Shown: positions 4,645-55,906, numbered from the stretch's first letter. The stretch: 56,134 bases of DNA from Methanobacteriota archaeon (GCA_043799545.1 JAZDNO010000022.1:1-56134); one strand, 5' to 3'. A program made the numbers and translations. The notes: generated by a model from the letters alone, not told the origin.

Positions 4645-5013
4645 TCAAGGATATTTCATGCAATGTGGGCAATACCATCTCTGATATAATGGAATCCAGT
4701 CAAGTGGATTATTACATAACGAACACGGCGGATGCGCAGTAACGAATCTCTGCGCTAAAATTTTTTCACCCGCGACCACGGCTTTCGAAGGGTTGTCGGT
4801 TAATTCGATATCGCTCAACTTACTAATATGCCCACATCGGTTGCACACCACCTTTCTTGAGCAGCCAACCGGGAGGACTGGGATGAAGAAAAGAGTGAAT
4901 GCACTCTTGGTCACAACGCCCGTATGCGACCACGGAAGTCCACAAGATGCGCAATGTGCCCCGAATGTGCCAATAGGGAATTTCTTGCTGGAGACACCGA
5001 ATATTACGAACAT
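4645..5013 (-). CDS. Double zinc-ribbon protein
   Basis: CASC...FTLFFIPVLP...CNRC (zinc-ribbon_15-like) plus a C-terminal CSLCNNPLDWIPLYQRWYCPHC motif. Confidence 0.75.
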   Translation of the reverse strand: MFVIFGVSSKKFPIGTFGAHCASCGLPWSHTGVVTKSAFTLFFIPVLPVGCSRKVVCNRCGHISKLSDIELTDNPSKAVVAGEKILAQRFVTAHPPCSLCNNPLDWIPLYQRWYCPHCMKYP

Positions 5014-5021
5014 AGCAGAAA

Positions 5022-6920
5022 TCAGACCTCCCCTTTATTGTCTTCTGATGGAGGGTCTTTCTTCGCAATAAAAACAACAGAAGGACGGCTCAGCAGCCAG
5101 TAAGTCGTCACGATAGCCATCAAAATAATTATGCTGCACATTGAAGCACAGATATTATTCTGAATCCATGCTATGATTCCATACTCCTCACTGGTATGAT
5201 TGTTTGAAGTATCCTGAGCTGTGCTGCCGCTAATAGAGTTGACCTGGATCTCATAGCTCACCACGCCCGTGGGCATTGCCCCTTCAACCGAATAATACTC
5301 ATTATCCAGCACCAGATAATAGTTGTGAGAATTTGCCAACACAGTAGTAAATGTAGTGGTATTTTCAACAGATTGTTCGGCTACAAACCATCTGGTGTGC
5401 TCGTTCTCATAAATGTCTAACTCAGATTCACTCCCGAAAATGTAGAAATCTACATTTCCACCGTATGTTATTGTAATCTGAACATTGACATCTCTCAAGC
5501 CCATGGGAAAATAATAAGTTGCGTGATCTAATCCTTTTAAATCTCTTACTGTTGTCATACTACGATTGACTACATAATAATTGTCGATATTTGCATTTAG
5601 CACCCAAACAATGATTGCATCTGTGTCCCAATTATCATCTATGTCGGTCACGTTTAGAATCACATCATAGAATCCAGGCTTCTGAAATACATAATTCAAC
5701 GAGATATTTTGGGAGATTGTTGTCAAATTTCCCTCATAAACATGCCAAGTATAGTTTGCCACGTCATTATTGTCATACGAATATTCACCGTTAAACGACA
5801 CTGTTTCGTTTGGATAAGCAATAACATCACCGCCAGCATCAGCTATTGGGGGTTCTAAATCAATCACATTCACCTTGAAGTAATCAATATCTATATTCCC
5901 GCCACAGTCGAGTACTGTCAACGATACATTGACTATTCCCCGGCGATCAAATGTAAACTCTGGTGTGAATCCAAATAAAGTAATATTGATAATTACTTGT
6001 TCTTCATAATAATAATTGTAATTCTGGTATTGAAAAAACCAAGTACAATAAAGTATCCCAGTGTTGTCTAAAGATAAATTGCTATTGAAGAAATGCGACC
6101 CATTTAATTGGGCATCACAGTTCCCTCCAGCGTTGGCTGTAGGCGCGATGGAGTCGAAAATCCGAGGGCTAAATAAAATGTGTAAAAAACCCCAAGTTTG
6201 TGGCTCATATGCATCCACTTTATCCGCACTTGGCCAACCAGAATAACCAGATCCTATAGTACAGAACATCAGAGTTTCATTCGATGTAACGTTGATATCC
6301 TCCAAAGTACCTGTGCTCAAGGGCAACCACCATTCGGAATAATAGTATGTTCCATTGATACTTTCCGCATAACCACCATCATTATTCGAACCGTCATCAC
6401 CTGTTGTGGTCCACATTCCGAGTCGAATATTGGAATCGACGAAATCATCGTTATATAAATATTTTCTATCCGCATTAATTCCGTCCAGTATACCATCTGG
6501 CTCGCCATCATCATCTTCAAAAAGTATTTGCCATGTCGAATAATATGGTATGTTAGATGTAAATAAAAAATAGATATTCACTCCATTATGCTTTGCTTTA
6601 ATCGAAATATAACCCCCCGGACAATTACCCCTTGTTTCTTGTGCTTCGTCCCATTTGTCAGCTAAGGTTATTGTGCCATCCAAAACCGGTGTAGTTCCAG
6701 CGTACGCAATGATGCTATTTTTCACTGATGGCTCAACAACAGTATCCGAGTATATGGATTTTTTAGCACCATTTTCCGTGGATTTGGAATTCGCATAAAA
6801 TGACGATGACGGAGACGATATGCAAAACACTATAAGCAATAACCAAATGAGATTTCGTGTTGCGAATGTTTGTCGTCGTTTTTCTACACACATTGCGAAG
6901 GGATATGATTTTTCCGACAT
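5022..6920 (-). CDS. Secreted, membrane-anchored PKD-domain surface protein
   Basis: N-terminal signal, DOMON/CBM9-like segment (PVLDGTITLADKWDEA), two PKD units (PTANAGG, PIADAGGD), C-terminal TM helix; AT-rich. Confidence 0.8.
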   Translation of the reverse strand: MSEKSYPFAMCVEKRRQTFATRNLIWLLLIVFCISSPSSSFYANSKSTENGAKKSIYSDTVVEPSVKNSIIAYAGTTPVLDGTITLADKWDEAQETRGNCPGGYISIKAKHNGVNIYFLFTSNIPYYSTWQILFEDDDGEPDGILDGINADRKYLYNDDFVDSNIRLGMWTTTGDDGSNNDGGYAESINGTYYYSEWWLPLSTGTLEDINVTSNETLMFCTIGSGYSGWPSADKVDAYEPQTWGFLHILFSPRIFDSIAPTANAGGNCDAQLNGSHFFNSNLSLDNTGILYCTWFFQYQNYNYYYEEQVIINITLFGFTPEFTFDRRGIVNVSLTVLDCGGNIDIDYFKVNVIDLEPPIADAGGDVIAYPNETVSFNGEYSYDNNDVANYTWHVYEGNLTTISQNISLNYVFQKPGFYDVILNVTDIDDNWDTDAIIVWVLNANIDNYYVVNRSMTTVRDLKGLDHATYYFPMGLRDVNVQITITYGGNVDFYIFGSESELDIYENEHTRWFVAEQSVENTTTFTTVLANSHNYYLVLDNEYYSVEGAMPTGVVSYEIQVNSISGSTAQDTSNNHTSEEYGIIAWIQNNICASMCSIIILMAIVTTYWLLSRPSVVFIAKKDPPSEDNKGEV

Positions 6921-6946
6921 ATAATAAATCTGTTATTACAAAATAG

Positions 6947-7864
6947 TCAGTCCCCGTACACGTTGAACTCGCTCTTCAAATTGTTGTAGGCCAGCGCGTC
7001 CAGCGTGCTCGGGTCCACCGAAATCAGGAATATCCCGCCGCTGACCGAAGCCACGTCGCGTATCCTCTGGGCGAACTTCAGGATGACTGGGAAGGAGTTG
7101 TTGCTTATGAGAAACTCGATGCCGTGGAGCATCACTATCCCCCCGGTCTCCTTGAGAAAACCGCCTATGGCGCGCGTCAGCTCGTGGTCGTACTGGCTCG
7201 GCTTGATGGACGGCACGTCCCCGGAGCTCTCGCTGGTGGAGAGCCAGACTATCTGGTAGTCGTGGCCGCATACGTCGTCGTACCGCTCCCTGGCCTTCGG
7301 CGGGAATATCCTGCTGATGCACAGGCCAGGCAAGCCGTACTTGACCGCCTTGGCGAAGATGTTGAACGTGGCGGGGGCGTTCTTCACCTCGTCTACGATG
7401 AGGTACGACTCGCCCCGCTCTAGCTTCGGTATGACCAGATCGCTGGAAACCTTCGACACAGGACGCTCCCGCGCCGCGGACGGGTCGCTCTTGGAAAGCT
7501 CGAAGGCGCCGTCCTTCACAGTGGCGACGTGTGGCTCGCCCAGCAGCTCGCCCAGCACCCCTGCGACGTAGCCAGCGCAGAAATGGTCGTCCTCCACGCT
7601 CCTCGCCCCCGACGGCCTGACTACGATTATCCCGCCGGCGCCCTGCTGGACCTCGATGCCGAGTATCCCGTCGGAGATGGCCGCCTGCGCCATCGCCCTC
7701 GGAAGCTCCCCGGGGCTCGCGCGCTGGCCCCGGGTGTTCGTGACGCCGACGATGTTGCCGTACTGATACAGAAGCCAGTCTGCCTCCTCCTTCCCCCCCT
7801 TCTGCTCCTCGAACGACCTCAGCTCCTTTATCGTTTCCGAGTCAACTGAAATCCTGTCACCCAT
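6947..7864 (-). CDS. V4R-like domain fused to DUF835 domain
   Basis: N-terminal LLYQYGNIVG...FCAGYVAGVLGELLG (V4R-like). C-terminal ESYLIV..GLCISR..IVWLS..IVMLHGIEFLISNNSF..ISVDP (DUF835). Overlaps the GTPase gene by 8 nt. Confidence 0.8.
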   Translation of the reverse strand: MGDRISVDSETIKELRSFEEQKGGKEEADWLLYQYGNIVGVTNTRGQRASPGELPRAMAQAAISDGILGIEVQQGAGGIIVVRPSGARSVEDDHFCAGYVAGVLGELLGEPHVATVKDGAFELSKSDPSAARERPVSKVSSDLVIPKLERGESYLIVDEVKNAPATFNIFAKAVKYGLPGLCISRIFPPKARERYDDVCGHDYQIVWLSTSESSGDVPSIKPSQYDHELTRAIGGFLKETGGIVMLHGIEFLISNNSFPVILKFAQRIRDVASVSGGIFLISVDPSTLDALAYNNLKSEFNVYGD

Positions 7865-14734: not shown

Positions 14735-17700
14735 TCACCCGCTGCCTATTTCGATATCAATGGTTTCTCGGGCCATCGCTCCGCCATTGTCAGTAATTGT
14801 CAAGGTGACTGTGTAGGTTGATGGCCCGGCGAATGTGTGCGCCACGATTGCACCTTCAGCGGCGGTGCCATCTCCGAAGTCCCAAACATACGAAGCGATT
14901 GCGCCATCACGGTCATAGGATTCCGATGCGTCAAAGAAGAACTGGTAGTTGTTCAAGGCCACGCCGTCCAAGTATGATGTGCTCAACGTGATTTCCTGGT
15001 AATATCCGCATAGAGTGTTGAATTCTTTAAAGAATGAAAGGGTATCGTCTCCAGAGGTGAACTTCAGCCACGTTGGATTCTCGCCAGGATGATTGGCCGA
15101 ATATTTCAGAATGACCGAATAGCTGCGTCCAAGGTACTTGTTCAGGACCATCGTTTGTGTGTCTGGGGCTCCGGTGCCTCGCGTCACCGACATCTGTCGG
15201 ATGAGTTCGCCATCTTCGTAGATTTCAACTGTAACCGTGTTACCCTTTCGACCCGCGATTTTGACCGAAACGAATACCTCTTGGTACACACCGATTTGTT
15301 GCACTGGTGGCCTATTGGGGATTTCAACGACTCTCGTCAGGGATGTAGTCAATCCATTCTCAAACACGATTGTGAGGTTCACTGTGTAGCTCCCGGATTC
15401 CGTGAACGGAAATTCATGCAATCCAGTATCATGCTGAGTTATGACCGTTCCGTTCCCAAAGTCCCATATGAGGGTTTCGGGTTGTATCAAGCCCTCTCTG
15501 CTGATGTGTGGAGCGCAATATACAGTCGTGCTGTTCTCGTAAAATTCCTTGATTGTCGCGTCCAAATCGACGATTCTTTCTTGGATTAAGCCATCCGCTG
15601 CATTGAAATCGAAATGCATCGTGCGGGAGCGCGTTCCCGATTCTATGGTCACATCGACAGTATTTGCACCCGTGCCAGAATTTTCATACCTCAACACCAT
15701 GAGCATGCCATATCCGACCGGATTGCGAAGCGTCAGAGATTTGCTCTCTGGCTCTCCGCCACTTAAGGTGACATCCCCAATTATTTTCGATGCGTTGCCT
15801 TGAGTGGCGATGAAATATATCTCGACGGCGTTGTTTTCCGCTCCGCTCACGGTCGCGGTCGCGTCGATTTGTTGGATAATCTCGATATCGTCAATCTTCA
15901 CATATCGCTGGATAATGGTATAATATCCCTTCGTGTACAATATTATGTCACGGTATTCCGTCTCCGGCGCCTCGTATGGAAATTCGAGGTCCACATATTC
16001 CCCGCAGTTCAGTTCCACATACGTTTCATCGCCGTATGCCAGCTCATCCATCACGTCGCCGTCAACCGAATGCACAGCGGAGGTCAGCACACATGTTGTA
16101 TCAATAAAATCACCGCCCTCCGATTGGTCCAGACCGACGAAGTCGACTTGGTGGTGCGCCCTCCACGAGATATTCACATGCAGATAATCGGTCGATGCCT
16201 GTAGGAAAGAAGTCAAATCAAAGACATCGATGCTCCACAATTCCCTTGGTATGATGGAACCGACCTGAATCCAATCCCCATCGGCATTTAAAATTCGGAT
16301 TTCTATCGGACCGTATAGCGGTTCGATGGCGTCCCAAGGAAGATAGTCGTAAGTGCATTTCAAATCGGACCTGAGTATTAGTTTTGCTGGCTTGCCGTAA
16401 TCGCAAGCGAATTTCACAACCAAACAATCATCCTTGTACCCATCATAATATTCATCGCCCATTGCCCCGACGACATTCGTGAGGTTCGCGTTGTTTTTAT
16501 CAAGACAGGAAAGCGGGGGAACGGGGTCTCCGTAGATGACTATATAGCCTTCCGGGGTCACGCCGACATTGAAATCGCCATCGTGGTCTATTGTGATGAG
16601 TTCGGCGTTGTCTATGTAAGATATCTCAAACAATTCCCCCTCCATTATTCGGAATTTGTATTTGTCCCCGACCGGAACCGGAGATTTTTGCAGGACGTAT
16701 GCATCGTCTATCATCGAACTCTGTTTGCTGAAATCTTCGGAATTCGTGAGCAGGCTGTTGTCCGGTTCGTAATTCGTGCCGTTCCATACCCAAACGTAAG
16801 GGCAGGATGGAGGCCACACCTTGTTATGTACCAATACTCCACCTGCGAAATAGTTATGGTTGTTCTCGACTTCCAGATTGTAGACAACGGCAGTCTTTTC
16901 GATGACCTCTCTCGATAAAACAGGAACATCCCCATCAATCCCGATCAAGGTATCTCCAATGGTGATATTTTCAGCGTTCTTAATCAAGTTTTGTGTGTAT
17001 ATCGGGTGGTTTCCAGTGACTTCGAGACCATTGATTTTCAAATATGAATCAACTGTGTGGTTCGATGTGTATATCACGGTGTCCGTTTCTATCTCTCCGG
17101 TTCGTTCGTTGTACGACAATATCCGGTCCCCTTGCGCTATGTTCTCGATATTCGCCTCACCGTTCGGGGTCGACACTTTGGTCCCGCCGACGAAACAGTA
17201 ACCCGGCGGTGGCGCCGACCATGGGACTTGATCCGTGGCGAAGGTTACCGTAAGGGAATCCGTGTGTTTGCCCGTAGAATCTACCGCTCTGACAAAGAGC
17301 GTGAAAACATTGCTTGAAGGTAGACCGCCTACGGCTTCGAACGGGTCTGTTGTGGTTTGCAATAAATTACTGCTGCCCGAATAGACCCAATAAATTTGGT
17401 AAACAACTGGCGATACATCGATTGATGCGGTCCATTCCAACCAAACACTGGTCACACTTGGATTAACAGTATGAATGATGGGAGCTGTGGGATTTTCCGT
17501 ATCGATTTGGATTTTATAGGTTCCAATCGGATAGGTGTTAGTATTCGTGTGTTTAAAGGATACATGGAGGTACCATAATCCTTCTTGAACATTAGTTAGA
17601 CCAATTGTTGTTGTGGCTGGGGAGTCGACCGTAGTTGTGCCAGCGGCGAGTGGGTCGGGGAGGTTGCTTGGATTGCTGTCGTGGTTTAAAACATAATAAA

Positions 17701-17830
17701 GTTTCGCCACACTCGATAATGATGGACCGGCCCAAGTAACCACAGGATTGACATCCGTATACCATTCTTCTTGATTTGGGTGTGTCGATGAGGTCAATGA
17801 CGTTAAAACAATAGTATCCTGTACTTGCAC
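14735..17830 (-). CDS. C-terminal part of a giant surface protein (FN3, Hint, uncharacterised beta-domain, PKD); probably continuous with the upstream subtilase via a frameshift
   Basis: No signal peptide and a GTG start in the middle of a repeat unit. The same frame extends upstream as TVICQVNDRCGNLVQVQDTIVL. Ends with a PKD domain (FFDASESYDRDGAIASYVWDFGDG). Confidence 0.85.
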   Translation of the reverse strand: MQVQDTIVLTSLTSSTHPNQEEWYTDVNPVVTWAGPSLSSVAKLYYVLNHDSNPSNLPDPLAAGTTTVDSPATTTIGLTNVQEGLWYLHVSFKHTNTNTYPIGTYKIQIDTENPTAPIIHTVNPSVTSVWLEWTASIDVSPVVYQIYWVYSGSSNLLQTTTDPFEAVGGLPSSNVFTLFVRAVDSTGKHTDSLTVTFATDQVPWSAPPPGYCFVGGTKVSTPNGEANIENIAQGDRILSYNERTGEIETDTVIYTSNHTVDSYLKINGLEVTGNHPIYTQNLIKNAENITIGDTLIGIDGDVPVLSREVIEKTAVVYNLEVENNHNYFAGGVLVHNKVWPPSCPYVWVWNGTNYEPDNSLLTNSEDFSKQSSMIDDAYVLQKSPVPVGDKYKFRIMEGELFEISYIDNAELITIDHDGDFNVGVTPEGYIVIYGDPVPPLSCLDKNNANLTNVVGAMGDEYYDGYKDDCLVVKFACDYGKPAKLILRSDLKCTYDYLPWDAIEPLYGPIEIRILNADGDWIQVGSIIPRELWSIDVFDLTSFLQASTDYLHVNISWRAHHQVDFVGLDQSEGGDFIDTTCVLTSAVHSVDGDVMDELAYGDETYVELNCGEYVDLEFPYEAPETEYRDIILYTKGYYTIIQRYVKIDDIEIIQQIDATATVSGAENNAVEIYFIATQGNASKIIGDVTLSGGEPESKSLTLRNPVGYGMLMVLRYENSGTGANTVDVTIESGTRSRTMHFDFNAADGLIQERIVDLDATIKEFYENSTTVYCAPHISREGLIQPETLIWDFGNGTVITQHDTGLHEFPFTESGSYTVNLTIVFENGLTTSLTRVVEIPNRPPVQQIGVYQEVFVSVKIAGRKGNTVTVEIYEDGELIRQMSVTRGTGAPDTQTMVLNKYLGRSYSVILKYSANHPGENPTWLKFTSGDDTLSFFKEFNTLCGYYQEITLSTSYLDGVALNNYQFFFDASESYDRDGAIASYVWDFGDGTAAEGAIVAHTFAGPSTYTVTLTITDNGGAMARETIDIEIGSG
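16823..17197 (-). other. Hint (intein-like/BIL) domain, 125 aa
   Basis: Block A CFVGGTKV, block B VTGNHPIY, block F/G VYNLEVENNHNYFAGGVLVHN followed by Lys; no endonuclease domain. Confidence 0.9.
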
Positions 17831-17862
17831 TAGATTTCCACAACGATCATTTACTTGGCATA

Positions 17863-20800
17863 TTACTGTTTTGTTCCCACGACGGGCGAGAGAATCCAGT
17901 TTTTTATTATTATTTGACCTGAAGGATAGTTATAAAAATTGACCCAATCAGACCAACCAATGCCATCCGAGCAGTATCGGAAAGCCCATAGGCCTATGCC
18001 AGAATCAGATGCTGACAAAGTCAAGGTCACACTTTGGCTGGGGGTGTATTCGGCTCCGTCATTGATATATGCTGATGCAGTGGGCGGAGTCATGTCTAAA
18101 ACAATCGTATCGCTTGATGTAGCAACATATCCGTTATAATCCAACACCTGATAATAAACTATCTTAGTCCCGGAGCCAGCGGTCAATATCCATGCTTTTG
18201 TTAGGGATGGGTTCTCCCAGAGCTCGGTGTCCCACGTTCCATCATTTGAATATCTCGCTAACCAGACGCCTGCACCAGTACTCTTGTATGTGAGTGATAA
18301 AGATACTGAGGTTGTTGCAGTATACTCGTTATAGTTATTGATAATTATTGAGCAAGAAAGAGGTATGGTATCGATCCAGAAAGGACCGATATGATATGCG
18401 TTTCCGTTCCAATTACCAGCGTTATCTTTAGTTCTTATATGAAAATATATATTATTTCCGTCAGCTTGCGCGGGACTAGTGGTGCTTGTTACTGTTGAAG
18501 CTATGTCTACGGTTGTATCTGGAATGGTAGTCGCGCTGGTTGACCATTGTGTCGAATAACCAGCCACTCCGCTCCCTCCTGCATCAGAGGCTCCCGACCA
18601 GCTAACGTCTATCGTGTTGTCGCTTGACCATGCGTTCACTGGTGGGTTTGATGTATAACTTGTGGGGTTCGTAGGAGCTACAGTGTCGATTTTAAATGGT
18701 CCTACATGATAAGCTCCTGGATTCCAATTGCCAGCATTATCTCTTGTTCTAATATGCAGGTACCAGTTTGTGCCATCGCTTAGTGCATTACTCGTGGTAC
18801 TAGTCCCTCCAGTATCAGAAGTGGCATCTGGAATTGTTGACGGATTAGTTGACCATTCGATTGAATATCCATAAACCCCACTATCTGCGTCTGATGCTCC
18901 AGACCAGCTTATTAAAATAGTGTTGTCGTTTGACCATGTGTTTATAGATCGATCTGAGCTGTAACTTGTGGGATTTATGGGCGATACTGCATCTAGTGGT
19001 ATCGCTCTACTCCATATTACATTGGACGAAGAAACCCCCCAATTACTCGACGCAACTTCAATCCAGATTTTATATTTATGATTCGGATATATGTCTTGGT
19101 TAAAAGTAAATGTTTTGGTATTTATATCTGAGATAATTGTTCCAGATTGAGGCAAGATATATGGATTGCCATATGTATCCCTTCCTTCGCCCCAGATTCG
19201 GTAATATACGAAATCGTTAGCATTATTGTTATACTTAGTCCATGTAACCTTGACCGAAGAGGTGGCTCTCACATTCGGCGGATTCAAAATAACTTCACCT
19301 GGATTATAACTGTCAATGAAATTTAAACAAGACTGTGCGTTAACTTGACCATAACCTGTATAACGATCCCAGCCATCAATAGCAATTTCTTGTCCAGAAG
19401 CATATATTAGATCGGTTGCGGTGACATTTATTATCGCTCTTACTTCAGCATTTGTTAATGAAGGTCTATATGACCAAATCAATGCAGCTACTCCGGCAAC
19501 AAGGGGTGCTGCAGCGGATGTGCCACTATATGGAATATAATTGTTGTTTGCAATTGTGCCGACAATCGATGTACCAGGAGCCATTACATCAAGTCTTGGA
19601 CCATAGTTGCTACCGCATCCTTCTATCCAGTCCGTAGGCGTAGCTCTCATATCAGCTGTGGTTGTTGCTCCTACGGCGATTACAGAGTCATAACTCGCCG
19701 GAACATAACTCTTACCATTATTTGTTAATCCAATTCCCCCATCTTCGTTGTTCCCACTCGCAGCAATAACCAGACAACCATTATTCCAAGCATCTACCAG
19801 TAATGAGTTAAATGTTGGGGAGATGTCATACCACCCAAAACTCATGCTGATTATATTTGCGTTATCCTTTACATATCTCAAAGATTGCCATAGCGCAACC
19901 GATGATACTGCGGGTGGCATATCCAGGCCATTAGTTCCACTACCACCACCTCCGAGTCTAATCGCCATTAATTTGCAATTGGCTACTCCTGAGATTCCAA
20001 TATTATTATTTATTCTAGCACCAACAATCCCTGCACAATATGTTCCGTGATACTCACCAACATACTCATCCATGGGGCCGTTAATTCCAGTATATTCATA
20101 TTGTTCATTATTACCAGTTATTGGATTTACTCTTGTCGAAGAGTCTATAAAGTCAAAACCATAATAATCATCAACATAACCATTATTATCATCATCAATA
20201 TTATTTGTTGATTTATTTTCTCCATTCGTATCTAATACTTTTTCTCCAGGATTATTCCACATATTGGATGTTAAATCTTCGTGGGTATAATCAATACCAC
20301 TGTCCATAATCGCGACAACTACTTGTTCATTACCTCTGGTTTTATCCCAGGCTTCTGGTACATTGATGCGCTTTAATCCCCACTGGTCTGTTGAGTATCT
20401 AGGATCATTAGGTATAAAATGATAATCCAAAACGACCATTCGATCGGATTCAACCAATTCGACTGAGGCATGTTTAGTAATTTTATCAATGAAAATATTC
20501 AATTTAATATATTTATCGTGTTGGTTCAAAGTCGAATTGCATACTTTAAATATAATTATACACGAATCGTTCCAGATATCAAATATTGTGGTGTTTAACG
20601 CATTAGCTAGTAAATTTATATTTTCTGGCATAGTATAAAATTTAACAAGAACTAATCCTGTTAAATTCCAACTTTCTGAATTCGCAATAGTCGTAGATCT
20701 TGTTAAATTGGTGGATTGATTCTCTCCATTTAAATCGGTTTGAATGGTTCGATAATACACGGGGAAAATTTCATCGGTTTTTAATTTCGCAAATCCATTG

Positions 20801-20874
20801 ATTGAAAACAAAGTAGCTATTAACGAGAAAGTTATTGTAACACATACACATCGCCTTAGAAACTTATTAGGCAT
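17863..20874 (-). CDS. S8 subtilase (thermitase-like) with FN3 and repeated Ig-like modules; N-terminal part of a frameshifted giant gene
   Basis: Signal peptide; triad VAIMDSGID / HGTYCAG / GTSAAAP; oxyanion-hole ASGN. Ends abruptly at ...VVGTKQ* in the middle of a repeat. Confidence 0.92.
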   Translation of the reverse strand: MPNKFLRRCVCVTITFSLIATLFSINGFAKLKTDEIFPVYYRTIQTDLNGENQSTNLTRSTTIANSESWNLTGLVLVKFYTMPENINLLANALNTTIFDIWNDSCIIIFKVCNSTLNQHDKYIKLNIFIDKITKHASVELVESDRMVVLDYHFIPNDPRYSTDQWGLKRINVPEAWDKTRGNEQVVVAIMDSGIDYTHEDLTSNMWNNPGEKVLDTNGENKSTNNIDDDNNGYVDDYYGFDFIDSSTRVNPITGNNEQYEYTGINGPMDEYVGEYHGTYCAGIVGARINNNIGISGVANCKLMAIRLGGGGSGTNGLDMPPAVSSVALWQSLRYVKDNANIISMSFGWYDISPTFNSLLVDAWNNGCLVIAASGNNEDGGIGLTNNGKSYVPASYDSVIAVGATTTADMRATPTDWIEGCGSNYGPRLDVMAPGTSIVGTIANNNYIPYSGTSAAAPLVAGVAALIWSYRPSLTNAEVRAIINVTATDLIYASGQEIAIDGWDRYTGYGQVNAQSCLNFIDSYNPGEVILNPPNVRATSSVKVTWTKYNNNANDFVYYRIWGEGRDTYGNPYILPQSGTIISDINTKTFTFNQDIYPNHKYKIWIEVASSNWGVSSSNVIWSRAIPLDAVSPINPTSYSSDRSINTWSNDNTILISWSGASDADSGVYGYSIEWSTNPSTIPDATSDTGGTSTTSNALSDGTNWYLHIRTRDNAGNWNPGAYHVGPFKIDTVAPTNPTSYTSNPPVNAWSSDNTIDVSWSGASDAGGSGVAGYSTQWSTSATTIPDTTVDIASTVTSTTSPAQADGNNIYFHIRTKDNAGNWNGNAYHIGPFWIDTIPLSCSIIINNYNEYTATTSVSLSLTYKSTGAGVWLARYSNDGTWDTELWENPSLTKAWILTAGSGTKIVYYQVLDYNGYVATSSDTIVLDMTPPTASAYINDGAEYTPSQSVTLTLSASDSGIGLWAFRYCSDGIGWSDWVNFYNYPSGQIIIKNWILSPVVGTKQ
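17929..18985 (-). repeat. Intragenic protein-level repeats: two ~105-aa and two ~95-aa modules
   Basis: D..P.NPTSY.S....N.WS.DNTI..SWSGASDA..SG..GYS..WST...TIPD...HIRT.DNAGNWN..AYH.GPF.IDT occurs twice, followed by S..IN....YT....V.L.L....G......YS.DG..W modules. Boundaries are approximate. Confidence 0.7.
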
Positions 20875-22639
20875 TTTTTCTCCTCCTTATTTTATAGAGT
20901 ATAATTATTAAAGGAGATAAACACAACAACGTAAATATGAATCCCCACCAGAGAATGATATTATTGCCAAACCATCCATAACCATCAATCTCTGATTGAA
21001 CAACAGTTATATCTGAATCGATATAGAAACCATTTGTATAGTATGTTCTAACCTTGAAATATTTTACATCAGTGACTGATAAATTTGTTATACTAAAGGT
21101 CGTTTGGTTTTTATCCAATATTGTAAATATTGTGTTCTTGTTAAACTGATTATCAAGTGAGAAGTAGATTTCATATTTTAGAAAATCTGGAGCAGTACTT
21201 CCTGACCAAGAGATGTTATATGCCGGTAAGGGTATTGTACTAAAAGACACATCGACCGAAGCAGCAATTGGGAGTTGAAAAAATGAAACGAAGATGCTAC
21301 TTGTACTATTATTTCGATAATCATCCCACGCGACATATAAAATATTTGAGAATTGATCTAATCCAATCGAAGAATACCCATTCGACCCATACCAGATATC
21401 ATTTGTCGGCGCATCATTCACGCGATTGTCGCCATTCCAATTATAACCACGATCTGGTGAATAGGATAAATAAATGGAATCGCCATTCCAAGAATCATCT
21501 CTTCCGGACCATGTTATAAGCGGATTCCCATTTCTGTCAACTGCGAGCCTGACTTGAGCTGTATCCCCATAAAGACGAGTAGCTTTTTCCATCAGGTCAG
21601 TTTCTATTTGGACATTTGAGCTAGACTTGGTAGTATCTTCTGAAGGTCGCCATGGACAAGAATAATTTTTATTAATTAGCTTTGGTGCCGTCCATGTAGT
21701 ACTATGATCATCTGACATTGAAAGAAAAATACCATCCTTTCTTGTTTCATTAATCGGCACACCGTCTCCTTCCCATGCAACAAAAATACGATTTCCCCAA
21801 CAGGCTATAGCCGGAGTATAGACATTACCGCCTCCAGTATAATTAGGTCCATATACTTCTACACTTTTAGTCCAATGCTCACCGTTGTCAATAGATTTGT
21901 GTATAATTATATGTGCAAAATTATATGAATAAGTTATATAAAGTACTCCTGAATCAGATAAGACCATTGATGGATATTTACCGAAATCATACGGTAAGGA
22001 TGCATTTTTATCATTGATAATCTTTTCCACCCAAGAGGTCCCTCCATTATTTGATCTCGAAAAAATTACATTCGTACGAGGAATCTGAGGGTCGCTCCAG
22101 TTAAAGCTCAGCCATACAGCAAATATCGTGTTTGTATTAGCACATACTATCGTCGGTTCGGTTTGTGCTTCGCCCCCATTACTGTTGATAATCACTGGGG
22201 TACTCCAAGTATCTCCTTCATCTGTACTCTTTACCAGGCAGATATCTGGATTTCCTAATTTATCGGTAGTCCAAGCTACATATACGGTATTATCAGTTAC
22301 ATATATCGTTGTACGCTGAGACGTATTGTACGAACATCCCATATCCCCGTTGATTTTTACACTCGTGCCGAACGTTAACCCATTGTCCGTTGATTTTGAA
22401 TAATAAATGTCACATGAATTAATTTGGCTTCTTGAATCGTACCAGGTCGCATGGACAACACCGTTTTTCCCAACAGCTAGAGCCGGGTGATTCTGGTTTG
22501 AAGTAATGGCTGTTTCGTTAGATAAAAGTAAATTATCACTAAATGGTATATCCGCATGAACTAATGGTAGAATTGTTGTTAAAAGAGCAAATGTTACAAT
22601 GAGGGTAATACGACATCTGTTGAATTTTATTAAATACAT
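20867..22639 (-). CDS. BNR/Asp-box (sialidase-like) beta-propeller surface protein with FN3 and C-terminal TM
   Basis: Six Asp-boxes (SKSTDNGLTF, KSTDEGDTW, SRSNNGGTSW, KSIDNGEHW, SMSDDHSTTW, SYSPDRGYNW). Overlaps the subtilase gene by 8 nt; very AT-rich. Confidence 0.85.
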   Translation of the reverse strand: MYLIKFNRCRITLIVTFALLTTILPLVHADIPFSDNLLLSNETAITSNQNHPALAVGKNGVVHATWYDSRSQINSCDIYYSKSTDNGLTFGTSVKINGDMGCSYNTSQRTTIYVTDNTVYVAWTTDKLGNPDICLVKSTDEGDTWSTPVIINSNGGEAQTEPTIVCANTNTIFAVWLSFNWSDPQIPRTNVIFSRSNNGGTSWVEKIINDKNASLPYDFGKYPSMVLSDSGVLYITYSYNFAHIIIHKSIDNGEHWTKSVEVYGPNYTGGGNVYTPAIACWGNRIFVAWEGDGVPINETRKDGIFLSMSDDHSTTWTAPKLINKNYSCPWRPSEDTTKSSSNVQIETDLMEKATRLYGDTAQVRLAVDRNGNPLITWSGRDDSWNGDSIYLSYSPDRGYNWNGDNRVNDAPTNDIWYGSNGYSSIGLDQFSNILYVAWDDYRNNSTSSIFVSFFQLPIAASVDVSFSTIPLPAYNISWSGSTAPDFLKYEIYFSLDNQFNKNTIFTILDKNQTTFSITNLSVTDVKYFKVRTYYTNGFYIDSDITVVQSEIDGYGWFGNNIILWWGFIFTLLCLSPLIIILYKIRRRKNA

Positions 22640-22946
22640 TTTTTCCCTCCAGTATATATATAATTTATATTAACTTTCATATATAACGGTATGTCTCGCC
22701 AAACAGCCCACCGTAAACGCTTCTTCGAAATGAGACCACAATCTATGACGAAAACGCGCCACCCCAAGTGACAAACCAAATTCACCTACCTCACATGCTT
22801 AGGATGGAATCAGTACCTTAAATAGATGCCGGTTTCGCCTCGAACATCCGGCTCGTTATTCTCGCCATGCCTACCGGCCACGCAGGCACTCACGTTTATT
22901 TCACAAAATAGAAAGGGAATAAAGGATTTACTGTTGATGCGTCGTC

Positions 22947-23132
22947 TCACTTCTTCTTGCTGTACCATATCGCCGCGGCCAGCCCGCCGACCATCGCCGC
23001 GATGCCCACCACGACCATGGCCTTGGTTATCAACATCGTCGGGTCGTCCATGTCCGCGTACGCCGTCCCGTCTGTCAGGCTGTACTTGACAACGACCGGC
23101 ACCATCAGCACCGCGATGAGGTTGATGACCTT
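22947..23132 (-). pseudogene. hppA: 3' remnant of a membrane-bound ion-translocating pyrophosphatase
   Basis: Hand translation: KVINLIAVLMVPVVVKYSLTDG...AMVVVGIAAMVGGLAAAIWYSKKK*, resembling the last two TM helices of H+-PPases. No upstream start and an in-frame TAG shortly before. Confidence 0.55.
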
Positions 23133-45446: not shown

Positions 45447-45467
45447 GCCACTGTAGCTCAGCTGGTG
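45447..45467 (+). repeat. Duplicated 5' end of tRNA-Thr (21 nt)
   Basis: GCCACTGTAGCTCAGCTGGTG is identical to 45574-45594. Confidence 0.9.
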
Positions 45468-45573
45468 CATTAGACGAGTTGCGCTCGTCTATGCCTCGCT
45501 GAACCACAACGCATTTGTCCTGGTTCAGCTTCGGGAGTATGCTCGAATAAAATCCATTCATAAGCAACAAAAC

Positions 45574-45646
45574 GCCACTGTAGCTCAGCTGGTGGAGCAG
45601 CTGATTCGTAATCAGCAGGTCGAGGGTTCAAATCCCTTCAGTGGCT
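45574..45646 (+). tRNA. tRNA-Thr (anticodon CGU), no intron, CCA not encoded
   Basis: Acceptor GCCACTG/CAGTGGC, anticodon stem GCTGA/TCAGC with loop TTCGTAA, T-loop GTTCAAATC, discriminator U. Confidence 0.97.
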
Positions 45647-45756
45647 CTATAAATTTTCTATTACTTTCATCAATATGGGATTTGAACTAAGACCACCAGA
45701 GGGGACCGATTGTGCTGCTAACCCACTGGTCGTCGGTTCAAATCCCTTCAGTGGCT
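45639..45756 (+). repeat. tRNA-derived module, copy 1
   Basis: CAGTGGCT, 30 nt, GGGATTTGAACTAAGACCACCA (45677-45698), loop, then GGTTCAAATCCCTTCAGTGGCT (45735-45756, identical to the tRNA 3' 22 nt). Hairpin spans 45677-45746. Confidence 0.9.
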
Positions 45757-45798
45757 TAATATTTTTAGCTCTAAATAGCCCATGCCGCAGGAGCATTC

Positions 45799-45915
45799 CA
45801 GTGGCTCTATTTATTATTATAATCTAGCTATGAATCGGGAATTGAACTTGGACCAACGCATGGGACGTAATTTGCTTTTTTCCAAGTGTTGGTCGGTTCA
45901 ATCCCCCCAGTGGCT
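45799..45915 (+). repeat. tRNA-derived module, copy 2 (diverged, pairing retained)
   Basis: CAGTGGCT (45799-45806), 30 nt, GGGAATTGAACTTGGACCAACGC, loop, GTGTTGGTCGGTTCAATCCCCCCAGTGGCT. Hairpin spans 45837-45906. Confidence 0.85.
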
Positions 45916-45932
45916 TACGCATCCCCTTAGTG

Positions 45933-47003
45933 TTATTCTTCGTGTTCGTGCCTGTGGTGGGTGTCCGGCGCGTGCGGGTGGGCGTGCTCGACCGCTTCGT
46001 GCTCGTGGGGATGAGAGTGCGCACCTTCCACGGGTTTCTCGTGTGCGTGGTCGTGATGTTCGTCGTCGTGGACGTGCCTGTGCTCGTGCGTCTCCGATGT
46101 GTGGACGTGTGGGTGCGCGTGCGCCTCCCTGAAAAGGAGGACCGCTCCGACGACCATCAGTGGGACGGACACCATGAAGCCCACGGTCAGTGAATCGTGG
46201 AAGATTGCCAGGCCAATCGCCGCACCCACAAACGGAGCTGTGCCGAAGAGCGCCCCGGTCCGCGCGGCACCCATGTCCCGCAACGCCCGGATGTATAGCG
46301 CGATGCTCAGCCCGTAGCAGACGAATCCCACGAGCATCGCGGCGAACGCTGTCGTCATCGCGGGGAAATCCCTGCCTATGATAAAGGCCAGGGCGATGCT
46401 GAACAGCCCGGCGCCCACCCCCTTGATTGCGACGATGGATATTGGGTCCCTCGCGGAGACGTTGCGCGTGAAGTTATTGTCCAGCCCCCATAGTAAGCAT
46501 GCCGCGAGGATTGCTAAAATCCCAGGCGAAATACCCCATCCGCTCGCTGCGTTAACCGACAAGACGACGCTGCCAGCAGTCACGAGGAAGAGTGCCAGCC
46601 AGATCCCCCGCCCAACAGCTTCTTTGAACATCAGCCTCGCGACTATGACCGTCCCGACGGCTTCGAAATTCAAAAGCAACGCCGCCGTCGAAGCAGGTGT
46701 GGTCCCGAGCCCGAACATGAGGATTATTGGTGCCGCTATGCCGCCCACGACCAGCGCGGACATAAGCCAAGGCAAATCCGCCTTTCTCAACGGCGCCTCG
46801 GAGCTGGCCCTCCCCATGGCCGTCTGGGTCGCCTTCGCAAGCGCCATCCCGAGCCCGCTGCCCAGATAAAGTAGCCCCGCGAGCATCACCGGGTCTACTG
46901 TGTCCAGCATGACCTTCGCCAGTGGAGCGCTCGCGCCGAACAGCACCGCCGCTCCCAACCCCATCAGAATCGCTAAATTCCGTTGATGCGTATTCCACGT
47001 CAT
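45933..47003 (-). CDS. DMT/EamA transporter with a His-rich C-terminal tail
   Basis: About 10 TM helices (ASTAALLLNFE, WGLDNN, GAARTGALF); tail HAHPHVH...HHRHEHEE. Confidence 0.92.
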   Translation of the reverse strand: MTWNTHQRNLAILMGLGAAVLFGASAPLAKVMLDTVDPVMLAGLLYLGSGLGMALAKATQTAMGRASSEAPLRKADLPWLMSALVVGGIAAPIILMFGLGTTPASTAALLLNFEAVGTVIVARLMFKEAVGRGIWLALFLVTAGSVVLSVNAASGWGISPGILAILAACLLWGLDNNFTRNVSARDPISIVAIKGVGAGLFSIALAFIIGRDFPAMTTAFAAMLVGFVCYGLSIALYIRALRDMGAARTGALFGTAPFVGAAIGLAIFHDSLTVGFMVSVPLMVVGAVLLFREAHAHPHVHTSETHEHRHVHDDEHHDHAHEKPVEGAHSHPHEHEAVEHAHPHAPDTHHRHEHEE

Positions 47004-47143
47004 CTATAACAACAATACATTTAGTTTATAAATATTACCTTTTCAAGAACTTGTCCTTTTCTCAGTGCTATTTCTTCTTGAGCAGCCAACGGCAGCCCTA
47101 ATCGCCTTAAATTTATAATAAGTCCCCATCACATAGCAGGCGG

Positions 47144-47260
47144 ATGACAATTGAAAATGAAATAAATTTTTCCAATGTGAATAGATTTTACGCTAAATTT
47201 CGCAGAAAATTACCTTATAAAAGATACTGGCTCGATTTTAGCAGCCTTTCAGTGGCTTAA
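47144..47260 (+). pseudogene. Possible truncated 5' gene fragment (38 aa) ending at the CAGTGGCT core
   Basis: TATA-like TTTATAAT and GGCGG upstream of ATG 47144; MTIENEINFSNVNRFYAKFRRKLPYKRYWLDFSSLSVA*, with TAA immediately after the core. Confidence 0.3.
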
Positions 47261-47309
47261 TAAATTTTTCATAGCTTTCGTCAACCTGGGATTTGAACTA
47301 AGACCACCA
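47250..47309 (+). repeat. tRNA-derived module, copy 3 (left half only)
   Basis: CAGTGGCT (47250-47257), 30 nt, GGGATTTGAACTAAGACCACCA (47288-47309, identical to 45677-45698); no right arm follows. Confidence 0.9.
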
Positions 47310-47385
47310 CATGGTGCCAAATCGTTTAATCGTTGCGGGGTAAAATCAAATGAAAGGTTTTGAGTTTGTAGTCCCAACAGCGAGA

Positions 47386-48321
47386 TTAGTTGCTCACCAC
47401 GTCTATGACGTTGCCGGTGTGTGCGTCTACGAAGACCACCGACTCGGCCATCAATGCGCTGTCTATCGACACTATGTGGTTCGGGTTCGTGATTACCTGC
47501 AGCACGTTTCCGCTTCCCGGCCCCCACCTCTCGACTTCGACTACGATAGCACCCGAGTACGACGTCGACGCGTAGATGTCCGTGATGTCGATGTGGTACC
47601 CAGAGGTCGGGCAGAGGCCCATGAAGGCCATCAGCACGGTCTCGGTTCCGAAGGGTATTGCCGGGGGAACTCCTCCTTCATGCGCGTCCCAGAACATGTC
47701 CCATCCTTCCCACGTGCTCACGGTTTCATAGTGCCCGACCCGCGGGCCCCATACATCGTAATCGTCCTTGTAACCGCTGTATGTCGAGGCCTCGTCATAG
47801 ATCGGAGTGATGGTTGTGTCCCAGTAGTACGGGTTCTGCTGGATCTTCTCCGAGAATATCAGAGCGACGAGGGTCTCCATCTGGTCTGTGAGCCCCTCGG
47901 CCTGAGCGTCGTCAATTATCCAGTCTTTGATGCCGGGCATCACTTCGAAAATCGCGTCCAGAGCGGCTTCATAGCGAGGGGTCTGGTACAGCCTGAGGTT
48001 CCTATACGCCTCGTACGTTTTCTCGCATATGACGGCCTTGTAGTCCGGCATTTCAAAGACCTCAATCGATGTAGCCACCGCCATGTCGTGGGCGTTCAAA
48101 GCATATTCCCACGCGGGGGCGCTCGGAAGGGTCGGCTCCGGTATCGGGACTGGATTCCCCGGCCCAGCCGGCGCAGTCGGGATGGAGCCGTTGTCTCCTG
48201 CCTCTTTCGTTACCTGCCCGCTTCCCGCCGTAACGATTGCCGGCATGGCCGCGGACATTGCCATGATGGCAACGCACACTATCGCACCTATTACTAATCC
48301 TATTTTTTTCATGTTACTCAT
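47386..48321 (-). CDS. Secreted protein with a PrcB C-terminal-like domain
   Basis: Signal MKKIGLVIGAIVCVAIMAM; C-terminal LMAFMGLCPTSGYHIDITDI...VLQVITNPNHIVSI. Start at 48321 or 48312. Confidence 0.7.
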   Translation of the reverse strand: MSNMKKIGLVIGAIVCVAIMAMSAAMPAIVTAGSGQVTKEAGDNGSIPTAPAGPGNPVPIPEPTLPSAPAWEYALNAHDMAVATSIEVFEMPDYKAVICEKTYEAYRNLRLYQTPRYEAALDAIFEVMPGIKDWIIDDAQAEGLTDQMETLVALIFSEKIQQNPYYWDTTITPIYDEASTYSGYKDDYDVWGPRVGHYETVSTWEGWDMFWDAHEGGVPPAIPFGTETVLMAFMGLCPTSGYHIDITDIYASTSYSGAIVVEVERWGPGSGNVLQVITNPNHIVSIDSALMAESVVFVDAHTGNVIDVVSN

Positions 48322-48611
48322 CTTCTTTCGGGTATTTGATGTCATAGCGCTCCGCAGCGCTCGTCGTTTACAAAGCCAACTCACATGATAACTGATGTGC
48401 CAGAGCAATCCCTACTCACACCACCTCCCCCGAAGGCATATTTCAGCCCCGTGGTGAAATGGCGATTATCATATTTAAGATTTATGTCATACCACCCATA
48501 AATGTTACGCTCCTAGTCTGCACAAAATTATTGACATGTGCACATCGAATTTTATCGGGCATTTTCCAACGGAAAATTCGTAATTTTTCCGAGTTGCCTG
48601 CACCGCGCTGC

Positions 48612-54292: not shown

Positions 54293-55906
54293 TTAATGTT
54301 TGTGCTCCGCATAAGCCAGCGCCGCCTTCACTAATCCGTAATGCACCGCAGAGGGCTTCAGCGGCCTTGACTTGAACTCGGGGTGGAACTGCGTCCCCAC
54401 GAAGTACGGGTGGCCGTCGAGTTCGGCGACCTCCATCCTGCGCCCGTCCTCCGAGCGGCCCGTGTAGTGCAGGCCAGCGCGCTCTATCTGCTCGATGTAC
54501 TGCGGATTGATCTCATATCGGTGCCTGTGGCGCTCGGATATTTCGGTCGCACCGTTGTAGAGCTCCGAGACCTTGCTTCCCTTAACAAGGACGGCCTTGT
54601 GGCCGCCCAGGCGCATCGTCGCCCCCATGTCAGTGACATCCTTCTGCTCGGGCAGCAGGTCGACGACCGGATGCCTCGTCCTCGGGTTGAACTCCGTGCT
54701 GTTCGCATCTTCCATGCAAAGGACCGTCCTGCAGAATTCAATCGTCGCCAGCTGGAATCCGAGGCAAACGCCGAGGAACGGAATCTTCTTCTCCCGCGCT
54801 ATCCCCGCGGCCTTTATCTTCCCCTCTATCCCCCTGTCACCGAAGCCACCCGGGATTAGGATGCCGTCGGCCTTCTCTAGAACGTCGATTCCGTGGCCCT
54901 TCTCAAGCTCCTCGCTCTCGACCCAGGTCAGCTCGACCTTCGCGCCTAGCGCCGCCCCCGCGTGCTGGAAGGCCTCGATGTGGCTGATGTATGAGTCGGC
55001 CAGATGGGTGTACTTGCCCACGATTGCGATGTGCACCTTCTTCTTCGCGGACAGGATGGAATTCACGAAAGTCTCCCAGCCTGCGAGGTCCTTAGGACCC
55101 TCCGGCAACCCAAGGCGCTTGAGTATGTAGTTCGCCAATCCTTGCTCCTCCAGCAGGAGTGGCACAAGATAAATCGACTTGGCGTCCGGCGCGCTCACCA
55201 CGGCTTCCAGAGGCACGTCGCAGAAAAGTGAAATCTTGCGCTTGATGTCGTATTCGAGCGGCCGCGTTCCCCTTGCCACGATTGCATCGGGGATTATCCC
55301 CATCTCCCTCAGCTTGCTCACGGAGTGCTGGGTAGGCTTCGTCTTCTGCTCGCCCACGACGCTCATTACCGGAACGAGCGTCGTATGCACGAAAACGCAG
55401 AACGCCTCGCCTCCGACCTCCCGGCGCAGCTGCCTCACTGCTTCGAGGAAGGGCATGGATTCTATGTCGCCGACAGTGCCGCCGAGCTCGACCAGAACGA
55501 CATCGGCGCCGGACTCCTTGCCCACGTCCAGTATCGTCTGTTTAATCTCGTTCGTCACGTGCGGGATTATCTGGACAGTTTTACCGAGGTAGTCGCCACG
55601 GCGCTCCTTCTCTATGACCGCGCGGTAGGCTTTACCGGTGGTGATGTTGTGGATGCTCGCGAGGCTGACATCTAAAAACCGCTCGTAGTTGCCCAGGTCC
55701 AGGTCGACCTCGCCCCCGTCGTCCAGAACGAAAACCTCGCCGTGCTGGAACGGGTTCATGGTACCAGCATCGCAGTTGAGGTAGGGGTCAATCTTTATTG
55801 CCGTAACCTTGAGGCCGCGCGCCCTCAGCAGAACGCCAATGGACGAAACGGTGATTCCCTTGCCAAGCCCAGACAAAACCCCGCCCGTCACCACAACGAA
55901 TTTCAT
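54293..55906 (-). CDS. pyrG: CTP synthase
   Basis: [57 protein letters not shown]. Confidence 0.98.

Follow-up and report, generated by a model that had tools for sequence, protein, structure and literature searches.

Serial insertion at the 3' end of a tRNA-Thr(CGT) gene as the probable origin of a repeat array in an archaeal genome

How did the end of a tRNA-Thr(CGT) gene come to be repeated five times on one strand of an archaeal chromosome, with a transporter gene enclosed between the repeats? The feature that raises this question occupies positions 45574-47309 of a 56,134-nucleotide (nt) stretch of DNA, hereafter the window, which is the entire contig C6 of the metagenome bin of an uncultivated archaeon (G000, here "this genome"; 2.06 Mb in 31 contigs, 58% GC, 94% complete). 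All positions are counted from the first letter of the window. Of the relatives compared, G001 is from the same genus, with orthologous proteins 69-91% identical to those of this genome, and G002 is from another family of the same order. The last 8 nt of the tRNA gene, CAGTGGCT, are called the core, and a module is a spacer followed by an inverted T-arm hairpin and a copy of the tRNA 3' end. Our best explanation, to which we give a probability of roughly 60%, is that the 3' end of the tRNA gene is a hot spot for integration and that serial insertions filled the locus, with the recombinase of its gene-bearing "beta" element acting in trans.

By both ARAGORN and Rfam, tRNA-Thr(CGT) is the sole tRNA in the window. 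A sequence search found the core starting at 45639, 45749, 45799, 45908, and 47250, always on the plus strand, exactly as an earlier reading of the DNA (the sequence-only reading) had listed it. Shuffled windows held a mean of 1.32 copies, and five were reached in one of 100 shuffles; genome-wide there are 37 copies, counted over both strands of 2.06 Mb. Five one-strand copies in 1.7 kb are far beyond chance (about 0.015 expected by estimate). Also confirmed was the claim that an inverted T-arm begins exactly 30 nt past three of the cores: the composite CAGTGGCT-N30-GGGAWTTGAAC has three matches in the whole genome, every one of them in the window (45639, 45799, 47250). When the gap was widened to 20-40 nt, extra matches appeared only at C10 c[121699-121772] (TGT) and C31 [54815-54887] (GGT), which are the two other tRNA-Thr genes of this genome, with spacers of 28-29 nt. 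The first two inverted arms pair with a direct T-arm copy downstream, forming hairpins at 45677-45746 and 45837-45905 (DNA fold z-scores of -3.8 and -2.8, respectively), and each is closed, as had been described, by a new copy of the tRNA 3' end with its core. For the third inverted arm (47288-47317), a right arm was searched for and none was found. The 50-bp (45757-45806) and 1.34-kb (45916-47257) segments between the modules do end in the core. Identical stretches among the repeats of the window are 22 nt at most. The features of the array and its cargo are the following:

45574-45646/7, plus strand: intact tRNA-Thr(CGT) gene (ARAGORN; Rfam tRNA, 69.9 bits), 99% identical to its G001 orthologue
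45647-45756, plus strand: hairpin module 1, with a 30-nt T-rich spacer, a 70-nt hairpin (45677-45746), and the 3'-end copy TTCAGTGGCT at 45747-45756
45757-47249, no strand assigned: integrase-less beta element of 1.49 kb, marked by perfect 10-nt TTCAGTGGCT repeats at 45747-45756 and 47248-47257
45797-45915, plus strand: module 2, inside the beta element, with the core TCCAGTGGCT, a 30-nt spacer, a tRNA-Thr(GGT)-type hairpin, and a terminal CCCAGTGGCT, both of these cores being degenerate
45933-47003, minus strand: DMT/EamA transporter gene (Pfam EamA, 9e-26), whose product has a His-rich C-terminal tail; an AT-rich promoter region of its own lies at 47004-47183
47250-47317, plus strand: distal core CAGTGGCT, a 30-nt spacer, and a left arm only (GGGATTTGAACTAAGACCACCACATGGTGC, at 47288-47317)
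47386-48408, minus strand: gene for a PrcB_C-domain protein of 340 amino acids (aa) (Pfam PrcB_C, 4.9e-10), with a GC content of 0.49-0.53

That this DNA is an addition could be seen by comparison within the genus. On contig C96 of G001, the order is CCG-domain gene, tRNA-Thr(CGT), about 200 nt, and PGK, with the same neighbours as in the window, and the approximately 200 nt downstream of the tRNA contain a different hairpin unit. Because G001 has the tRNA gene directly between these neighbours, the approximately 2.9 kb that lie downstream of it in this genome, comprising the modules, the DMT gene, and the PrcB_C-domain gene, are inserted. A further 127 nt, extra in the same comparison, lie upstream.

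The nature of the largest inserted piece was indicated by G002. The beta element is flanked by direct copies of the tRNA 3' end, the tRNA itself being intact. On contig C19 of G002, whose first 17 kb hold no tRNA, there are two genuine tRNA-Thr cores (AATCCCTCCAGTGGCT) 6.8 kb apart. To the right of core 1, TCATATTTTTAGCGCTAAAT matches window positions 45757-45776, the left end of the beta element, and the 65 nt to the left of core 2, formed by a TTTAGCGCTAAA palindrome and then AAAAGATACTGGCTC, match its right end (47184-47249). The match extends beyond the element, as positions 47184-47317 correspond to the 65 nt, core 2, the spacer, and the left arm. In this genome, the two end types were found only at the two ends of the beta element. 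Since both ends match those of the G002 element (element Y), 45757-47249 is one element of the same family, with different cargo: an open reading frame (ORF) of 1142 aa and a STAND NTPase in the 6.8 kb of element Y, and the DMT gene in the beta element. Element Y carries no integrase, and the element across core 1 from it has a PF00589 integrase, at C19:2330-3277, together with ThiF-like and JAB-like genes. Both tRNA-Thr genes of G002 are followed by near-identical beta-type left ends. At the right end of the beta element, ACTGGCT (47226-47232) precedes the core by about 20 nt, and the same arrangement is found at the distal end of an integrase island behind tRNA-Trp in this genome, where CTGGCT lies downstream of the tRNA at three of the three integrase-bearing islands. 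The two tandem elements at the tRNA-Thr cores of G002 cover C19:1-10666 (loci L209 and L207), and their cargo is defence-like; the 1142-aa ORF belongs to no known family, and the STAND NTPase carries TPR repeats.

The transporter gene itself is an accessory gene. It is present in six of 41 relatives, never there next to a tRNA or modules, and stands at differing tRNA-free loci in G001, G002, G005, and G018; no exact record of the protein was found. Its product is 78% identical to that of the G001 copy, which occupies another locus and whose stop codon abuts a GC-rich non-coding element of 335 nt. As that element is accompanied by the DMT gene in G001 and stands on C28 without it in this genome, the gene has moved within the genus. 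The 335-nt element (C28:1035-1370 here; C172:687-1021 in G001, locus L054) is 91% identical between the two genomes, above the neighbouring genes, has no match in Rfam, and has a partial third copy at C31:31681-31750. The PrcB_C-domain protein had no match among 40 relatives.

According to the hot-spot explanation, small elements would have entered the last 8-13 nt of the tRNA gene by site-specific recombination, and each insertion would have rebuilt the tRNA end and left a copy at its far side, making stacking possible. Three kinds of piece, at minimum, may be stacked here: a hairpin module of the type also found behind tRNA-Thr(TGT); the beta element with the DMT gene and its promoter, carrying the GGT-type module as a passenger; and an older unit reduced to core, spacer, and left arm, beyond which lies the lower-GC PrcB_C gene. 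The order of these events, the recombinase, and the position of the crossover are what we infer here; the beta enzyme would most likely be a tyrosine integrase from a related element, acting in trans. Such site-specific integration, repeated at a tRNA end that is regenerated, is a process of a known kind and is not an integron. Archaeal elements with tyrosine recombinases target tRNA 3' ends and form arrays by re-use of the site (Krupovic et al. 2019, PMC6563490), and new arrivals displace older elements outward, leaving partial tRNAs (Hackl et al., bioRxiv 10.1101/2020.12.28.424599).

Repeated site-specific insertion of cargo at a regenerating tRNA end was the central proposal of the sequence-only reading, and it is upheld: the array is missing from G001, and the same ends enclose other cargo in G002, this being the variation in cargo that a comparison between genomes was meant to reveal. 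No integrase gene lies in the window, as had been noted, and hence none lies inside the array or adjacent to it. Catalysis in trans, the corollary drawn from this, is plausible in that the matching element of G002 also lacks an integrase and is next to an element that bears one, with the reservation that no integrase of that kind is present in this assembly. The suggested search for a linked tyrosine recombinase had a similarly divided outcome, since the four PF00589 genes of this genome are all elsewhere (on C10, C12, and C25), and an integrase does stand beside the matching element in G002. The idea of an integron-like cassette system was not supported, as the modules are not cassette ends and are mostly gene-less, the ends of the DMT element are not hairpins, and the integrase island at tRNA-Trp has pushed hairpins aside. 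The genome comparisons agree better with the alternative offered in the same place, a nest of collapsed tandem islands.

The tRNA-Trp island, at C12:53839-74695, is 20.6 kb long and lies behind an intron-containing tRNA-Trp gene, with its integrase adjoining the tRNA and an IS200-type Y1 gene inside. On its far side there is a core-spacer-arm-hairpin-core-spacer-arm array with two copies of the tRNA end. The integrase island has pushed this older hairpin array outward to its far end.

Several observations weigh against the hot-spot explanation. The block of core, spacer, and left arm past the beta element is conserved between two families, which a simple attB flank would not predict, and no element end marks the left junction of the DMT gene (45916-45932). 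One more event is needed to account for the GGT-type module within the beta element. The integrase of the G002 type is without a homologue in this 94%-complete assembly, so that present-day mobility is putative. Furthermore, the integrase islands of this genome have no inverted T-arm, so that this integrase family leaves the hairpin modules, which are most of the array, unexplained.

The modules are part of a set of tRNA-end-copy units that extends over the genome. An exact inverted copy of at least 9 nt of the tRNA's own last 30 nt, starting 17-37 nt downstream, was found at 19 of the 40 tRNAs (non-cognate control: 6%), a direct copy of the 3' end within 400 nt at 20 of the 40, and a 5'-end copy upstream at 12 of the 40. 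The modules are thus not special to the array, nor is their geometry fixed, as the sequence-only reading had it: spacers elsewhere, both at other loci and in other genomes, measure 27-30 nt. Hairpins without an ORF stand at approximately 20 tRNAs, and the set is mostly gene-less; units of the same sort are carried by tRNA-Tyr and tRNA-Ser. Module 1 is homologous to modules at C10 and at C91 of G001. The left arm of module 2 (GGGAATTGAAC) fits the T-loop sequence of tRNA-Thr(GGT) on C31 (TTCAATT) rather than that of the local tRNA (TTCAAAT), and the 50-bp segment contains the first 10 nt of a tRNA-Phe arm, a match that may be due to chance for a 10-mer. Every tRNA-Thr gene of G000, G001, G002, and G005 has some module, the type of which varies and differs at two of the three orthologous tRNA-Thr loci within the genus, and the last parts of an array are often core, spacer, and arm, beyond which the DNA is native.

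The hairpins pair imperfectly and have internal loops that are asymmetric; the outer arms, which end in ...GAAC / GTTC..., are conserved, and the interiors vary. Common to many units is an inner hairpin, GAGGAC...GTCCGAA, which in this genome occurs only 29-200 nt past tRNAs and on the tRNA strand, and which, across 401 genomes of the class, appears as a hairpin in only two of the order's families. Its foot lies 28-31 nt past the tRNA end in seven units and 38-43 nt past it in five; the inverted arm ranges from 7 to 14 nt, and the length of the spacer compensates. The right-end copy always matches the local tRNA. Stem pairing is kept by compensatory changes in four of 23 pairs, G-T pairs are on the tRNA strand, and the spacer has a tRNA terminator T-run and a TATA-like motif approximately 25-30 nt before the start of the hairpin. 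In Rfam, the window region and 13 other module loci match tRNA only and no other family.

The presence of hairpin units beside about half of the tRNA genes is unusual and unexplained by the serial integrase picture. Candidates are relics of integrase arms and mobile hairpin elements dependent on a Y1 (HUH) transposase-like gene. It is rather doubtful, though worth stating, that the gene-less units constitute an undescribed, order-specific family of miniature elements targeted to tRNA ends, with an inverted T-arm "guide" at a set distance from the conserved foot, moved by a domesticated Y1 (HUH) transposase or serving as folded recombination sites, and able to stack and occasionally trap genes.

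Could the same gene account for the array as a whole? If the modules were non-autonomous elements resembling palindrome-associated transposable elements (PATEs) or the hairpin-forming doublets (REPINs) of repetitive extragenic palindromic (REP) sequences, moved as single strands by the Y1 protein, the inverted T-arm would be a long guide pairing with the tRNA 3' region and setting the cut at the tRNA end, and joint movement of two units would pick up genes. We consider this unlikely. In its favour, the Y1 gene is a single copy in this genome (C25:29957-30301; locus L062:1459-1914), with the HUH motif and the catalytic Tyr intact; of the 22 genomes of the order, 16 have it, among them all seven of high quality, and its identities track phylogeny (88% within the genus, 54-65% beyond). 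It looks domesticated, like the REP-associated tyrosine transposases (RAYTs). In this genus it is followed downstream by a hairpin, a tRNA-Leu pseudo-copy, and tRNA-Leu(gag). The arrangement recalls that of RAYTs and REPINs in bacteria. The restriction of the GAGGAC...GTCCGAA foot to the neighbourhood of tRNAs, its near-constant 28-31 nt from the tRNA end despite arms of varying length, and the foreign-type modules of the window (GGT-type and Phe-type pieces) all fit a mobile unit, and the inverted arm lies directly 5' of the foot, which is where the guide sequences of IS200/IS605 elements lie (IS608). The link between Y1 and the modules is nevertheless circumstantial. A right-end copy that always fits the local tRNA is unexpected for a copy-out element, the second distance class, one helical turn longer, hints at recognition of double-stranded DNA, and the non-hairpin ends of the DMT element match an integrase-associated element. 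The search of the genome for TnpB gave no OrfB_IS605 match and no convincing match to the TnpB zinc ribbon, and the idea of TnpB with an omega RNA was dropped. Quite unlikely, in our judgement, is that the modules are functional host elements, whether structures for termination or processing, small RNAs that mimic tRNA, or decoy landing sites, which selection keeps beside tRNA genes and gene conversion homogenises with the tRNA; the array would then have come from local duplication and ordinary rearrangement. The prevalence of modules at tRNA genes in general and at tRNA-Thr genes in particular, the compensatory changes, the G-T pairs, and the promoter and terminator motifs of the spacer would be expected of such structures; the differing module types at orthologous loci of one genus, the foreign types in the window, the lack of an Rfam family, and the confinement of the GAGGAC-type hairpin to two families would not, and the element ends common to G002 are left unexplained.

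A true integron analogue, in which hairpins act as folded single-strand sites (like attC, or attP of the CTX phage) and a dedicated recombinase captures cassettes at a tRNA-derived primary site, is very unlikely. The form of the hairpins does recall such sites, the array has no integrase inside, and both cargo genes have the same orientation, each being followed by a whole or half hairpin on its own strand. However, the array has two genes only, most hairpins have none, the sole clear cassette has non-hairpin ends, the PF00589 genes are elsewhere rather than adjacent, and the classical explanation accounts for the cargo. It is highly improbable that short repeats in common led the metagenome assembler to join similar tRNA-Thr loci, or variants from different strains, into one sequence, even though the genome is a metagenome bin and the contigs of relatives often break in such modules (G005 C149 and C76; metagenome locus L141): identical stretches of 22 nt or less are below the usual assembly words, and three types of junction were seen independently in other genomes or loci: C10 and G001 show the layout of module 1, and G002 shows both the passage from core to beta-left and that of beta-right-core-spacer-arm. 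A casposon was ruled out, as the genome gave no match to PF01867 (Cas1); casposons have a Cas1-family casposase, terminal inverted repeats, and a target duplication of 14-15 bp.

Serial insertion at the tRNA end brings the locus closest to tandem tyrosine-recombinase elements, such as those of archaea and the tycheposon islands of Prochlorococcus, in which the tRNA 3' end receives the insertion and is rebuilt, with direct repeats between the units. In tandem islands at tRNA or tmRNA genes, of which the ssrA islands of Dehalococcoides are reportedly an example, newer units are likewise nearest the tRNA, remnants are decayed or integrase-less, and cargo varies among relatives. The present units differ in being tiny (50-110 nt and 1.5 kb), in retaining no integrase at the locus or, for the beta family, in the assembly, and in being mostly gene-less hairpins with an inverted T-arm copy. 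Integrons have an IntI-type integrase with an adjacent attI and promoter, and their cassettes consist of one ORF and an attC hairpin. Like integrons and clusters of attC sites lacking integron integrases (CALINs), the locus has an array of imperfect hairpins with no integrase nearby, gene(s) between the sites, and a proposed recombination in trans; there is neither IntI nor attI, however, the hairpins are copies of tRNA ends beside half of the tRNA genes, and the gene-bearing unit, with non-hairpin ends and its own promoter, departs from the pattern of one ORF and one attC. REP/REPIN-RAYT systems and the PATEs of IS200/IS605 share with our units short gene-less hairpins, a conserved single-copy host Y1 gene, what may be a fixed distance from end to foot, and a flank-complementary sequence 5' of the foot, whereas the present units are tied to tRNA 3' ends, with tRNA-specific arms of 7-16 nt in place of a 4-nt guide. 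Integrative mobile elements exploiting Xer recombination (IMEX), such as the CTX phage at dif, are also integrase-less and insert serially at a regenerated site, for some of which a folded hairpin site has been proposed, but the target here is a tRNA end rather than dif, and there is no sign of Xer involvement.

With respect to the gene-bearing part, the locus illustrates a way for accessory genes, here those of a metal-type DMT transporter and of a PrcB-like protein, to be acquired and moved about in a small archaeal genome, by means of a tRNA-anchored landing pad and integrase-less elements that share ends with defence-gene islands of a related family. This is an ordinary but useful annotation; the hairpin units pose the more interesting question. 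If the units are mobile elements whose target is recognised through base pairing with the tRNA gene, they would represent a new class of programmable, tRNA-directed insertion element and also a first RAYT/REPIN-like system in archaea. As host structures, they would suggest that the expression of tRNA genes, or their protection against integration, includes a step not yet known.

The 127 nt upstream of the tRNA gene comprise two further features:

45447-45467, plus strand: the first 21 nt of tRNA-Thr, repeated without mismatch at a period of 127 nt and located behind the original promoter
45468-45573, plus strand: upstream insert of two hairpins and an AT-rich promoter-like stretch (fold z-score of -3.2), missing at the orthologous locus of G001

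In G001, the same promoter is immediately upstream of tRNA-Thr(CGT). The insert is 81% identical to an element upstream of tRNA-Thr(TGT) on C10, and related inserts were found upstream of tRNA-Asn in three genomes. The arrangement at tRNA-Thr and tRNA-Asn consists of an exact copy of the tRNA's own first 21-22 nt, two conserved hairpins (the first of the GACGAG-YTGCG-CTCGTC type and the second of the GCTGA...TCAGC type), and a new promoter-like AT stretch, and the 5'-end copy follows the tRNA sequence of each genome. Similar arrangements are at C26:2930-3072 of this genome, C37:13545-13687 of G014, and C78:5287-5428 of G008. Ectopic gene conversion from the TGT locus was ruled out as the source of both flanks, since CGT-type sequence is found in the tRNA body as well as in both flanking copies.

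Other candidates concerning the hairpin units were also set aside. Behind the trailing spacer-plus-arm units at tRNA-Arg and tRNA-Gln, foreign DNA was ruled out, as the GC content is native and the units abut ordinary chromosome. An origin from mature tRNA fragments was ruled out because the 3' copies are without CCA where the gene is without CCA, and a K-turn reading of GAGGAC/GTCCGAA did not fit the consensus on inspection of the motif. The flanks of the IS200 copy on C25 have no hairpin closely like the modules, only one framed by GAGG...GAA. In a pattern scan of metagenomes, nearly all of the 80 loci listed were chance matches, and only L141 had the same tRNA-Thr, spacer, and arm, at a contig end.

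Among the minor observations, tRNA-Thr(CGT) on C149 of G005 (positions 200-300, locus L071) has a 30-nt insert in the D-loop, intron-like at a non-canonical position, and tandem 146-nt units follow it up to the end of the contig. Sites of the form ...GCTCATCCCCAAGTGACGGTTCC... occur in this genome at C28:7390, C28:12334, C20:24567, and C25:32955, one of them preceded by the T-loop-like GTTCGAATCC. Elsewhere in the window, positions 5000-7000 and 15000-23000 have a GC content of 32-48% against a background of 58-62% and are likely foreign DNA.

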